Below the pieces are notes generated by a model. The model saw only the letters and a program-made list of their open reading frames with translations, searched no databases and had not been told where the DNA came from. The translations under genes and the position numbers were made by a program. DNA of 64,000 nucleotides. Source: Escherichia phage REP2. The DNA is taken from sequence record OQ174501.1; one strand, given 5' to 3'. How positions within the stretch are numbered: the first letter of the stretch is position 1; each line of letters starts with the position of its first letter. Of the stretch, positions 30,190 through 32,583 are shown in pieces.

Positions 30190-30262
30190 TGGGAATTAGC
30201 CAAGTTGGTAAGGCATAGCACTTTGACTGCTAGATGCAAAGGTTCGAGTCCTTTATTCCCAG
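30190..30262 (+). tRNA. tRNA-Gln (UUG)
   Basis: cloverleaf by eye; anticodon loop CUUUGAC; T-arm GGTTCGAGTCC. Confidence 0.8.
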
Positions 30263-30263
30263 C

Positions 30264-30350
30264 GCGAGAATGGTCAAATTGGTAAAGGCACAGCACTTAA
30301 AATGCTGCGGAATGATTTCCTTGTGGGTTCGAGTCCCACTTCTCGCACCA
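30264..30350 (+). tRNA. tRNA-Leu (UAA)
   Basis: 87 nt with long variable arm; anticodon loop CUUAAAA; CCA encoded. Confidence 0.8.
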
Positions 30351-30355
30351 AATTT

Positions 30356-30429
<74 letters not shown>

Positions 30430-30439
30430 ATTTAATTTA

Positions 30440-30513
30440 CTCCGTGTAGCTCAGTTTGGTAGAGCGCCTGATTTGGGATCAGGAGGTCCAAGGTTCAAAT
30501 CCTTGTATGGAGA
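30440..30513 (+). tRNA. tRNA-Pro (UGG)
   Basis: anticodon loop UUUGGGA; T-arm GGTTCAAATCC. Confidence 0.75.
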
Positions 30514-30515
30514 CT

Positions 30516-30605
30516 GGAGGCGTGGCAGAGTGGTTTAATGCACCGGTCTTGAAAACCGGCAGTCGCTCCGGCGACTCATAGGTTCAAATCCTATCGCCTC
30601 CGCCA
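30516..30605 (+). tRNA. tRNA-Ser (UGA)
   Basis: 90 nt with long variable arm; anticodon loop CUUGAAA; CCA encoded. Confidence 0.8.
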
Positions 30606-30610
30606 GTTTT

Positions 30611-30686
30611 GCTGATTTAGCTCAGTAGGTAGAGCACCTCACTTGTAATGAGGATGTCGGCGGTTCGATTCCGTCAATCAGCACCA
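30611..30686 (+). tRNA. tRNA-Thr (UGU)
   Basis: anticodon loop CUUGUAA; CCA encoded. Confidence 0.8.
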
Positions 30687-30687
30687 A

Positions 30688-30762
30688 GGCCCTGTAGCTG
30701 GAAGGTTCAAGCAAGCGACTCATAATCGCCAGATGGTGGTTCAATTCCACCCAGGGCCACCA
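30688..30762 (+). tRNA. tRNA-Ile/Met (CAU)
   Basis: anticodon loop CUCAUAA; by position the homologue of T4 tRNA-Ile. Confidence 0.65.
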
Positions 30763-30768
30763 AATTAA

Positions 30769-30855
30769 GGGGAGTTATCCCGTAGAGGTAGCGGTGTGGA
30801 CTGTAAATTCATTGTCATTGCGACTCGGGTGGTTCGACTCCACCACTCCCCACCA
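30769..30855 (+). tRNA. tRNA-Tyr (GUA)
   Basis: 87 nt class-II fold with long variable arm; anticodon loop CUGUAAA; T-arm GGTTCGACTCC. Confidence 0.6.
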
Positions 30856-30859
30856 ATTT

Positions 30860-30934
30860 GGATGTGTAGCTCAGTGGTAGAGCAGTTGACTGTTAATCAA
30901 TTGGTCCATGGTTCGAATCCATGCATGTCCGCCA
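30860..30934 (+). tRNA. tRNA-Asn (GUU)
   Basis: anticodon loop CUGUUAA; T-arm GGTTCGAATCC; CCA encoded. Confidence 0.65.
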
Positions 30935-31060
30935 AACTTGTGACAGTTGTCACATTAATATCTACTTGACGCGATTATAGGGGTTGAACTGATCACACTT
31001 CTCTTAATTTCGTGTGAAGACATCTTGATTGTTGGAGTAGGTATTGCTGTGAACTAATTA

Positions 31061-31137
31061 CGGGGTGTAACTCAATTGTATAGAGTAGCGGTCCTCTAAA
31101 CCGCAGGTTAAAGGTTAGAATCCTTTCACCCTGACCA
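31061..31137 (+). tRNA. tRNA-Arg (UCU)
   Basis: anticodon loop CCUCUAA; CCA encoded; last tRNA of the cluster. Confidence 0.65.
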
Positions 31138-31158
31138 AATTATTGAGAGAATAATATT

Positions 31159-31713
31159 ATGAGAAGTGATGTAGACTGGGACCAAATTAATTTGGCTATA
31201 AAAGCTGGATTAATATACCATGGTAATTTTGAAATAACACAAGAACTAATTGAAAATGTTGCTTTTCTTAAAATAACAGATAAGAAAAAATTCTTTTCTA
31301 TGACTGAATCCAAACGCTTGTCAAAATGGAAAGTATTTTGTAGGACTGCCGCCCTAAATCTTTTGAAATTTAAAGATGAATTTGATATAGAAAAAAGCTA
31401 TCGACAGGCTTTCGTATACATAATGGTAGATACTACAAATCCTAATTATTATAAAATAGGAAGAAGTATAGAACCTGATGTTAGAGTTATAACAGCAAAT
31501 ACATTTTCACCGTTTAAAAGTTTTAAAATAGTATCATTTAGATATTCCCAGGATGCAGTAGAACTTGAAAAATATATGCACAGCATTTATAATCAGGACC
31601 ATATAAATGGTGAATGGTTTTTCTTTCATGACATAAGTTCCATAGTTAAAAAATTAGATACTAAATCTACACAATTTGAAATACCAAATGAGAAACCGGG
31701 TCGCTACCGGTAA
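31159..31713 (+). CDS. GIY-YIG / T5orf172-like domain protein (possible free-standing endonuclease-like gene)
   Basis: 184 aa; C-terminal motif FVYIMVD...YYKIGRS...R...E...GEWFF resembles GIY-YIG/T5orf172 core; directly follows tRNA-Arg. Confidence 0.55.
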   Translation: MRSDVDWDQINLAIKAGLIYHGNFEITQELIENVAFLKITDKKKFFSMTESKRLSKWKVFCRTAALNLLKFKDEFDIEKSYRQAFVYIMVDTTNPNYYKIGRSIEPDVRVITANTFSPFKSFKIVSFRYSQDAVELEKYMHSIYNQDHINGEWFFFHDISSIVKKLDTKSTQFEIPNEKPGRYR

Positions 31714-31857
31714 GTCGTCGGACTGATGTTCCCTGAGTAAGGAATTGCGTTAATAATCTTTGCGTTTATTGATGCCCTCTTACATCACAGCAGAAACGGC
31801 GCACCGAATTATCGATTCGAGGAAATATCTTTGCCGTAAGCCGAGTAGCGTTTTTGA

Positions 31858-31950
31858 CGGAACGTTCGGATATGGTCGAGATATGGCCTTTTAAAAATAT
31901 TGAGTAGCGTCAACTGCTTAATAACCGGGTTCGAATCCCGGCGTTTCGTA
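31858..31950 (+). ncRNA. tRNA-like stable RNA (candidate homologue of T4 species 1/2 RNA)
   Basis: acceptor-like stem CGGAACG/CGTTTCG closing a perfect T-arm CCGGGTTCGAATCCCGG; no complete cloverleaf. Confidence 0.3.
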
Positions 31951-32000: not shown

Positions 32001-32028
32001 AGCCCCGACCGAAAGGTTGGGGCTTTTT
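32001..32028 (+). terminator. rho-independent terminator (GAAA tetraloop)
   Basis: AGCCCCGACC-GAAA-GGTTGGGGCT 10-bp stem followed by TTTTT. Confidence 0.75.
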
Positions 32029-32030
32029 AG

Positions 32031-32038
32031 TATAAATA
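32031..32038 (+). promoter_or_regulatory. T4 late promoter TATAAATA
   Basis: exact TATAAATA about 37 nt upstream of the ORF at 32075. Confidence 0.5.
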
Positions 32039-32074: not shown

Positions 32075-32548
32075 ATGAAATCATATGCTCAATTTTTAAA
32101 TGAAGCGGTGTTAAATGAAGCATCTAGCACTGAAATTCAAGCTGTTGCAAAAGCTGCCATTGCCGCGGGTAAATATTCCTATAAAGATGCTTCCGATGAA
32201 TCACGATTCCAATTTGCTCGTGATATGAAAGCCGAAGGATTTACAGGGAATGCAGTTAGTATGGCTTGGAAAAGTTTAGTTGCTACTGGAGCTGCTTTTG
32301 CAAAGGCTTCGGGTAAACCTGCTCCTAAAGCAGATCCTAAAGCTGCACAAGAAAAAAATATTGTTAAAGGAATTATCTCCAAATATGAAGCTATCCTTAA
32401 AGAGCTTTTAGTAATCAAAACTGAAGGCCAAAAGCTAGCTCGTGCTTATAGTTTCAAAGATAACCCACATGCTCACTCTCTTGAGTATGTTGAAGACATC
32501 CAAAAAATTATTAAAGACCGCATTTGGTCTGCTAAACAAATCAAATAA
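32075..32548 (+). CDS. internal-protein-like protein with CTS-like N-terminus
   Basis: 157 aa starting MKSYAQFLNEA; Ala/Lys-rich; late promoter upstream and terminator downstream. Confidence 0.55.
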   Translation: MKSYAQFLNEAVLNEASSTEIQAVAKAAIAAGKYSYKDASDESRFQFARDMKAEGFTGNAVSMAWKSLVATGAAFAKASGKPAPKADPKAAQEKNIVKGIISKYEAILKELLVIKTEGQKLARAYSFKDNPHAHSLEYVEDIQKIIKDRIWSAKQIK

Positions 32549-32555
32549 CATTCTT

Positions 32556-32583
32556 AGCCCTAGCCGAAAGGTTGGGGCTTTTT
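32556..32583 (+). terminator. rho-independent terminator (GAAA tetraloop)
   Basis: AGCCCTAGCC-GAAA-GGTTGGGGCT followed by TTTTT; near copy of the 32001 terminator. Confidence 0.75.

Follow-up and report, generated by a model that had tools for sequence, protein, structure and literature searches.

Escherichia phage REP2 carries, directly downstream of tRNA-Arg(UCU) in its tRNA operon, a 184-aa open reading frame (ORF) that we interpret as a free-standing gene for a homing endonuclease from the T5orf172 branch of the GIY-YIG superfamily, a reading to which we assign a probability of about 0.6. The window, i.e., the whole stretch of DNA that was analyzed, comprises 64,000 nucleotides of this phage (OQ174501.1). 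The ORF belongs to this branch by its domains, its fold, and its conserved residues; it evolves under purifying selection, is distributed patchily with clean boundaries, and is shared between genera as part of a cassette. We infer that its product is a nuclease acting on DNA at a target site, that its own phage would be immune, and that the gene would spread by homing. The ORF is uncharacterized and rare in T-even phages, and the element is of an already known kind.

Over the region tested, the window is 100% identical to the genome of REP3 (OQ174502.1, Tequatrovirus), where the ORF is annotated as a hypothetical protein (WCA46179.1). ARAGORN identified ten tRNA genes at 30190–31137 of the window. 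The first nine, in the order Gln, Leu, Gly, Pro, Ser, Thr, Met/Ile(CAT), Tyr, and Asn, are separated by a 126-bp spacer (30935–31060) from the tenth, Arg(TCT). The gene at 30688–30762 is tRNA-Met (CAT) according to ARAGORN, while the homologous gene is tRNA-Ile in the REP3 and T4 records; this is a difference in labelling only. Once modified to lysidine, a CAT anticodon specifies Ile.

The ORF lies where an earlier note on this DNA had placed it, after tRNA-Arg and before a region of small RNAs, which are rnaD and rnaC (Table 1). The distance from the tRNA to the ORF is 18–24 nt in all leaders compared (11 contexts), and other genera have kept the leader (AATTTATGAGGATAA..ATT ATG) along with the ORF. 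At the other end, the last eight codons of the ORF (NEKPGRYR, stop) come from the sequence that in T4 forms the tRNA-Arg/rnaD junction; in other genera, the C-terminus of the family ends shortly past a conserved F-x-I/L-P. The rnaD/rnaC stretch is 97.7% identical to T4, where these small stable RNAs also follow tRNA-Arg, and serves as the downstream anchor of the slot; no Rfam family reached the threshold over it. As the ORF has a tRNA 21 nt upstream, overlaps rnaD, and is followed by rnaC and then by a terminator-like hairpin, it is embedded in the tRNA operon.

Table 1. Features of the tRNA-Arg/rnaD region of the window.
Feature	Position	Strand	Basis or remark
tRNA-Arg(UCU), variant allele (tRNA-Arg')	31061..31137	+	ARAGORN; Rfam tRNA model, 60.7 bits
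Leader, 21 nt, from tRNA CCA end to ATG	31138..31158	+	GAGAG Shine-Dalgarno-like element (sequence)
184-aa ORF, ATG start	31159..31713	+	T5orf172/MUG113 (GIY-YIG clan), phrog_5032 member; putative free-standing homing endonuclease
N-terminal four-helix domain, aa 1–80	31159..31398	+	
T5orf172 / GIY-YIG-like nuclease domain (predicted), aa 84–169	31408..31665	+	
Overlap of ORF 3' end and rnaD 5' end, 26 nt	31688..31713	+	33-nt 100% match to T4 tRNA-Arg/rnaD; junction sequences
Segment unlike ORF-less Tequatroviruses	31052..31690	.	BLAST breakpoints 31051/31052 and 31690/31691
rnaD and rnaC	31688..31950	+	rnaD ~31688–31805, rnaC ~31812–31950; coordinates transferred from T4 and Aplg8 annotations
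Terminator-like hairpin closing the tRNA/rnaD/rnaC transcription unit	32001..32033	+	Terminator scan; Aplg8 terminator annotated at the homologous place

Two further observations concern this region. A strong sigma-70-like match inside the ORF (31565–31593; TTGAAA, 17 nt, TATAAT; 11 of 12 positions), ∼95 nt upstream of rnaD, could serve as a separate promoter for rnaD/rnaC; as shuffled sequences contain at least as many promoter-like sites in total as the region does, it is possibly a chance match. Downstream, a 157-aa gene (CDS 32075–32548; phrog_2280, unknown function) lies between near-identical terminator-like hairpins at 32001–32024 and 32556–32579. It is wholly missing from T4 and from phage 236Ecol005PP, and looks like a second small cassette with a flanking direct repeat of ∼30 bp.

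The ORF is a genuine gene and not a chance reading frame. A match to phrog_5032 spans it from end to end (E 2.9e-59), its dN/dS is 0.08–0.18 (Nei-Gojobori, against seven relatives, where substitutions suffice for an estimate), and all homologues in the genomes examined are intact, none being frameshifted or truncated.

A GIY-YIG/T5orf172-like core had been proposed for the C-terminal half of the protein from three motifs, FVYIMVD, YYKIGRS, and GEWFF, all of which are present exactly in the translation. The T5orf172 side of this likeness holds. Two models of the GIY-YIG clan, in which membership is defined by a score above the curated gathering threshold, match the ORF: MUG113 (PF13455) with 38.1 bits (threshold 22.3, E 2.3e-9, aa 98–155) and T5orf172 (PF10544) with 27.9 bits (threshold 20, E 3.4e-6, aa 85–155). 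Both domains are also precomputed in 12 of 12 close homologues. The classical GIY-YIG model (PF01541), however, stays below its threshold, with 13.0 bits against 22.6 (E 0.13).

Residues Y87, K99, G101, R109, P118, E137, and E152 (in GEWF) are invariant in 32 homologues with identity down to 22%, which yields the motif GIY...KIG...R...E...GEWF. Y87 is the Tyr of the first GIY-YIG motif; in the second motif, K99-I-G101, an invariant Lys replaces the Tyr. R109 is located eight residues past G101, as R27 is past G19 in I-TevI, and either E137 or E152 may be the counterpart of E75 in I-TevI and E180 in Odn. T5orf172 is regarded as a GIY-YIG subfamily, and the one enzyme of this type that has been tested, Odn of phage ICP1, cleaves DNA in vitro and is inactivated by a Glu-to-Ala change aligned with the catalytic Glu of I-TevI (PMC8263062).

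The AlphaFold model based on 13 sequences is confident (pLDDT 90.3, pTM 0.86). It contains N-terminal helices at aa 7–15, 28–37, 42–47, and 50–73, followed by a C-terminal half (aa 84–169) with the order beta-beta-alpha-beta-alpha-beta-beta-alpha. By the fold of the latter, the protein falls within the GIY-YIG superfamily, whose members are defined by a sheet of three strands with helices on its sides that can be superposed on solved GIY-YIG nucleases. A Foldseek search of the PDB gave no match at E ≤ 0.001, and the family profile matched none of the sequences of solved structures even at E 10.

The N-terminal domain (aa 1–80), which carries the invariant motif CRTAALNLLKFK, is presumably a target-recognition module. 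It matched no known fold, and no RNA-binding fold was detected in the protein. In a survey of T5orf172 genes, 87% encoded at least one zinc-finger DNA-binding module of the CapR/DUF723/DUF4397 type beside the T5orf172 domain (Barth et al., 2023); in the ORF protein, no such Pfam match was found, and the whole protein has one Cys and no Cys cluster. The PADLOC defence models yielded no full-length match and only weak domain-level ones (PDC-S57, 21.5 bits; PD-Lambda-1, 17.5 bits; aa 81–173).

Using the 2.5-kb locus as a query, we found 985 matching phage records, mostly Tequatrovirus, with full coverage in only eight. Of these records, 10, representing eight distinct phages, contain the DNA of the ORF at full length (100% coverage) with an identity of at least 98%. 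Its identity is 91–95% in the Gapriverviruses VR7, VR26, and ESCO10, ∼80% in three Mosigviruses, and 66–70% in some Jiaodavirus and Winklervirus genomes. The corresponding protein identities are 94% for Gaprivervirus, 77–79% for Mosigvirus-like phages, and 57–60% for Jiaodavirus and Winklervirus. Among the 182 records matching the locus of KpV477 (Jiaodavirus), only four to five contain the ORF.

A scan of 1.84 billion representative proteins produced 859 matches at E ≤ 0.001, only seven of them at E ≤ 1e-10. By tblastn, 279 phage records match, mostly T5-like, and many have a tRNA beneath the match. The nearest relatives outside T4-like phages (39–43% identity) come from T5-like phages, for example My1 (Pectobacterium) and Kenya-K20 (Salmonella), and from metagenomic contigs. 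An alignment-based search of IMG/VR for further contexts of the ORF returned only three loci, all of known phages.

The T5-like phrog_5032 proteins (orf172 of BF23/T5 and, among others, bas31_0099 of DaisyDussoix and those of My1 and Kenya-K20) are of the same size (∼175–190 aa) and share the layout of the ORF protein, with an N-terminal helical part containing an AALNLLK motif and a C-terminal T5orf172 domain. They also share its placement, as the genes start ∼20 nt past a tRNA gene and their stop codons overlap the next RNA gene. In particular, bas31_0099, annotated as a "putative homing endonuclease," begins 21 nt past tRNA-Cys and extends into tRNA-Asn. The closest T5-like members are likewise tied to tRNA-Arg(UCU), with G32 in its anticodon loop, although they are located upstream of it and end 33–39 nt inside the tRNA gene, whereas the ORF lies downstream of tRNA-Arg, runs into rnaD, and belongs to a T4-like myovirus. 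Since the relatives of the ORF reside in the tRNA regions of T5-like phages, and a similarity to BF23 ORF172c was already remarked by the authors of the VR7 genome, its family is, judging from these similarities, the founding tRNA-region orf172 family, found here in a T4-like phage. Genes of the T5orf172 type are absent from T4 itself (PMC10448857), and in the literature searched we found no description of the T4-like members of the family or of their link to tRNA-Arg.

A second, distant T5orf172 ORF (175 aa; L020 3360–3887) occurs in the metagenomic T4-like contig SRR13308523_3652, where it starts 15 nt after tRNA-Lys(UUU) and shares one tRNA cluster with a tRNA-Arg-linked T5orf172 ORF. Other family members in T5-like phages adjoin tRNA-Lys, tRNA-Asn, and tRNA-Glu. 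Separate members of the family may be tied to separate tRNA genes.

Comparison with ORF-less relatives, which the earlier note had proposed as a way to define the insertion, indeed delimits it in three pairs of genomes. Between the Tequatroviruses REP3 and Aplg8, homology is interrupted at the breakpoints listed in Table 1: the 639 bp with tRNA-Arg' and the ORF replace tRNA-His, a canonical tRNA-Arg, and a 116-aa ORF (phrog_3355) of Aplg8. In the Gaprivervirus pair of VR7 and VR20, the flanks are 97–98% identical, the tRNA segment is only 76% identical, and an unrelated 79-aa ORF stands in VR20 instead of the T5orf172 ORF; the right-hand breakpoint is again the start of rnaD. In the Jiaodavirus pair of KpV477 and UTI-K1, the ORF is an insert of ∼543 nt that begins precisely after the terminal CCA of tRNA-Arg and reaches the first nucleotide of tRNA-Thr, with tRNA-Leu and tRNA-Thr identical and the stop codon of the ORF within tRNA-Thr. 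Patchy presence with precise boundaries at a conserved site, by which homing genes are recognized, is therefore seen in pairs from three genera.

The tRNA-Arg' and the ORF are also shared across otherwise dissimilar genomes. Between REP3 and VR7, tRNA-Arg' is 98.7% and the ORF 94.3% identical; besides these, only the conserved rnaD/rnaC align, and the neighbouring genes are unalignable. Within Tequatrovirus, the ORF is 98.3–99.8% identical, compared with 80–97% for the flanking coding genes, and the backgrounds carrying it differ: teqskov is without four tRNAs, 236Ecol005PP is without the downstream gene, and rnaD of sutha is divergent. Such a pattern is the signature that a mobile cassette would be expected to leave, and nuclease genes are located where genetic exchange between phages has its boundaries (PMC10448857). 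The patchiness, the clean boundaries, and the cross-genus identity of the cassette thus speak for the independent insertion of a mobile endonuclease-like gene that the earlier note had suggested.

The slot between tRNA-Arg and rnaD has other occupants. In the ORF-less Tequatroviruses examined (Aplg8 and SG1), it holds the 116-aa phrog_3355 ORF of unknown function (L002 2629–2979 in Aplg8, where it is unannotated, and L015 2602–2952 in SG1; also present in ESh27, L012 3542–3886), and most records matching the locus have a non-matching stretch of similar size there. Other arrangements are segB-Arg/rnaD in T4, segB-Arg-ORF116-rnaD in SG1, and Met-ORF-ORF116-rnaD in ESh27. As the 116-aa ORF directly follows the T5orf172 ORF in ESh27, the two are independent occupants of the slot. 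Two candidate readings were discarded or doubted. The same-sized neighbouring genes KpV477 gp143 and VR20_144 are not paralogues of the ORF, having no similarity to it. That ATACCA before rnaD is a relic of the 3' end of a T4-type tRNA-Arg is doubtful, as its codons encode the family-conserved Ile-Pro in other genera too, and it is better read as a probable short microhomology at the junction.

In T4, the GIY-YIG homing endonuclease gene segB is situated between tRNA-Ile and tRNA-Arg, as the earlier note had stated and as seen in the T4 annotation. It is absent from the whole window, and the Ile–Arg interval, described previously as holding a spacer alone, contains tRNA-Tyr and tRNA-Asn in addition to that spacer. 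SegB cuts tRNA genes (PMC2330249) and drags neighbouring tRNA genes along (PMC2330249, PMC13096335). Like the ORF, it resides in the tRNA cluster next to tRNA-Arg, belongs to GIY-YIG at the level of fold, and is patchy among T-even phages. The two differ in place and architecture, as the earlier note had also stated, since the gene of SegB lies upstream of tRNA-Arg and its catalytic domain is N-terminal, while the ORF lies downstream and its predicted catalytic domain is C-terminal; moreover, SegB is an experimentally proven endonuclease and the ORF product a putative one. We reject a relationship between them, given the hhalign probability of 0.15 with the profile of 32 homologues and no BLASTP match. 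None of the genomes examined has segB and the T5orf172 ORF together; segB and the 116-aa ORF co-occur in SG1.

In the lineages of ICP1, T5, and other phages, genes with this domain are classed among the homing endonuclease genes (PMC10448857). A C-terminal T5orf172 domain behind a recognition domain, as in the ORF, is found in the putative homing endonucleases Gp53/121/130 of ICP1, in Odn/Gp88, and in the satellite protein CapR. In the ICP1 proteins as in the ORF protein, an Arg and a Glu are conserved that would be the catalytic ones, and the genes are positioned at exchange boundaries between related phages (PMC8263062, PMC10448857). However, the likeness is at the domain level only, the N-terminus of the ORF protein being neither a CapR/DUF723/DUF4397 zinc finger nor RepA_N.

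Instead of a homing endonuclease, the ORF might encode a domesticated nuclease or DNA-binding protein kept for its benefit to the phage, in which case its fixed place beside tRNA-Arg would reflect a job at the tRNA locus. Models for such a role are SegB (tRNA and anti-defence gene amplification), Odn (an anti-satellite nuclease), and CapR (a repressor). The dN/dS of 0.08–0.18 and the lack of broken copies in the genomes examined are consistent with it, as is the tie to tRNA-Arg(UCU) kept from T4-like to T5-like phages at 39–43% protein identity. In addition, tRNA-gene amplification promoted by SegB defeats Septu (PMC13096335), and T5orf172 proteins are open to co-option, as seen in Odn and CapR (PMC8263062, PMC10448857). 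Still, we consider domestication unlikely: a gene of benefit to the phage should occur in more than ∼1% of Tequatrovirus genomes, unrelated small ORFs stand in for this one in close relatives with near-identical flanks, and neither a partner gene nor a target element is evident.

A different history, compatible with both homing and a helper function, is that the ORF has long resided in the tRNA cluster of T4-like phages, has passed down vertically along with tRNA-Arg, has been lost many times, and is neither mobile now nor recently inserted. Protein identity does drop roughly with the distance between genera (94%, 77–79%, and 57–60%), and the place after tRNA-Arg is constant across contexts. 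This history seems improbable, as the cassettes of REP3 and VR7 are 94–99% identical amid unalignable surrounding genes, the ORF-bearing Tequatroviruses (teqskov, 236Ecol005PP, sutha) have differing backgrounds, and the closest relatives outside T4-like phages lie in unrelated T5-like siphoviruses.

The tRNA gene linked to the ORF differs from its counterparts in ORF-less phages. U is near-universal at tRNA position 33, but REP3 tRNA-Arg', with the anticodon loop CCUCUAA, has C33 instead. Its T loop is GGUUAGAAUCC, also given as GGTTAGAATCC, with A at position 56, and its D loop is without the GG pair. Both C33 and A56 are visible in the alignment to the Rfam model; a change at position 19 that would compensate for A56 is not supported by the Infernal alignment. 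Alleles at least 96% identical to tRNA-Arg' were found only in ORF-carrying records. The T- and D-loop features are common to the ORF-less VR20 and SG1, but C33 is not. We considered the A56 T loop as a mark specific to the ORF or as a SegB immunity, and rejected it as ORF-specific, since the same T loop occurs in ORF-less VR20 and segB-linked SG1.

The ORF starts 18–24 nt past tRNA-Arg(UCU) in every T4-like context examined except ESh27, where it directly follows tRNA-Met because a 93-nt stretch with the whole tRNA-Arg' is missing (Mosigviruses AV110, L016 2475–2597, versus ESh27, L012 2979–3000). In AV110, this stretch is bounded by short direct repeats (ATTTAT).

The loop of the ORF-linked tRNA-Arg(UCU) is CCTCTAA (C33) in REP3, VR7, VR26, AV110, two metagenomic phages, and L023, the ORF of which is only 40% identical. 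It is GTTCTAA (G32) in KpV477, X20, PS2, Muldoon, L022, L024, My1, and Kenya-K20. By contrast, the ORF-less relatives T4, Aplg8, SG1, VR20, UTI-K1, KP185, Stubb, and vB_Kpn_3 have the canonical CTTCTAA. All ORF-linked tRNA-Arg(UCU) genes examined, in a small and phylogenetically non-independent sample, therefore have C33 or G32. In Jiaodavirus, the linked tRNA-Arg has many substitutions in its D and anticodon arms, whereas the tRNAs on either side show none.

In IMG/VR, the pattern counts are 9 for C33 and 118 for the canonical loop, and no family ORF was found at the canonical-loop, same-stem loci (0/118). We rejected the idea that C33 is exclusive to ORF-linked tRNAs, as a C33 tRNA-Arg(UCU) also occurs without the ORF in six to seven unrelated contigs of IMG/VR; hence, the ORF implies a variant loop, but not vice versa. 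These contigs (L034, L035, L037–L040), which come from unrelated large phages with 15–24 tRNA genes, have no T5orf172 neighbour of this tRNA and carry the same loop in GCGGT-CCTCTAA-ACCG.

An RNA-directed enzyme, either cleaving the canonical tRNA-Arg(UCU) anticodon loop of the host or rival phages while the phage provides a resistant copy changed at position 32 or 33, or processing the transcript of the tRNA operon, would agree with the contrast between C33 or G32 in ORF-linked tRNAs and C32-U33 in ORF-less relatives and with the embedding of the ORF between RNA genes, the next of which it overlaps, but we deem it very improbable, as no RNA-binding fold was detected and, to our knowledge, all characterized GIY-YIG enzymes cut DNA. 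So does Odn, the one T5orf172 enzyme tested (PMC8263062), and the C33 tRNA-Arg(UCU) of the ORF-less contigs fits the idea of evasion of host nucleases (PMC10264068).

If the ORF encodes a free-standing homing endonuclease, as we prefer, it would be co-transcribed with the tRNAs and translated off its own short leader. The N-terminal helical domain would recognize a DNA site, and the C-terminal GIY-YIG-like domain, with Y87, K99, R109, E137, and E152, would cut the DNA. In a mixed infection, the tRNA-Arg/rnaD region of a related ORF-less phage would be cut, and recombinational repair would copy the ORF together with the adjoining tRNA-Arg allele into the cut genome. The copy of the phage itself would be protected through sequence differences, the best candidates being the changes at positions 32/33 in the linked tRNA-Arg gene.

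The altered loops fit two readings. The target of the endonuclease may lie in the tRNA-Arg gene, the altered loop shielding the carrier. Alternatively, the changes may evade host tRNA nucleases, as has been proposed for anticodon-loop changes in phage tRNAs (PMC10264068), and the endonuclease may merely carry them along. A bolder and rather doubtful version of the former is that this small T5orf172 family specifically targets the anticodon-arm region of tRNA-Arg(UCU) genes, with C33 or G32 as a self-immunity mark, and that the endonuclease and the cleavage-resistant tRNA allele spread together.

For homing endonucleases, T4-like phages are the textbook case, and the T5orf172 type circulates there too, rarely, in the tRNA cluster of T-even phages. 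SegB acts in this very hot spot and helps phages to escape tRNA-targeting immunity (PMC13096335). As small unrelated ORFs replace one another between tRNA-Arg and rnaD, the slot is a natural experiment in cassette exchange. Should the ORF encode an ordinary homing endonuclease whose target lies elsewhere, this would be a routine annotation. If, on the other hand, tRNA-Arg(UCU) is its target, there would be a selfish driver for unusual anticodon loops of phage tRNAs, and such loops might also resist host defences that cut tRNA. If the protein cut the canonical gene but not the variant, selfish nucleases would be tied to the evolution of odd phage tRNAs.
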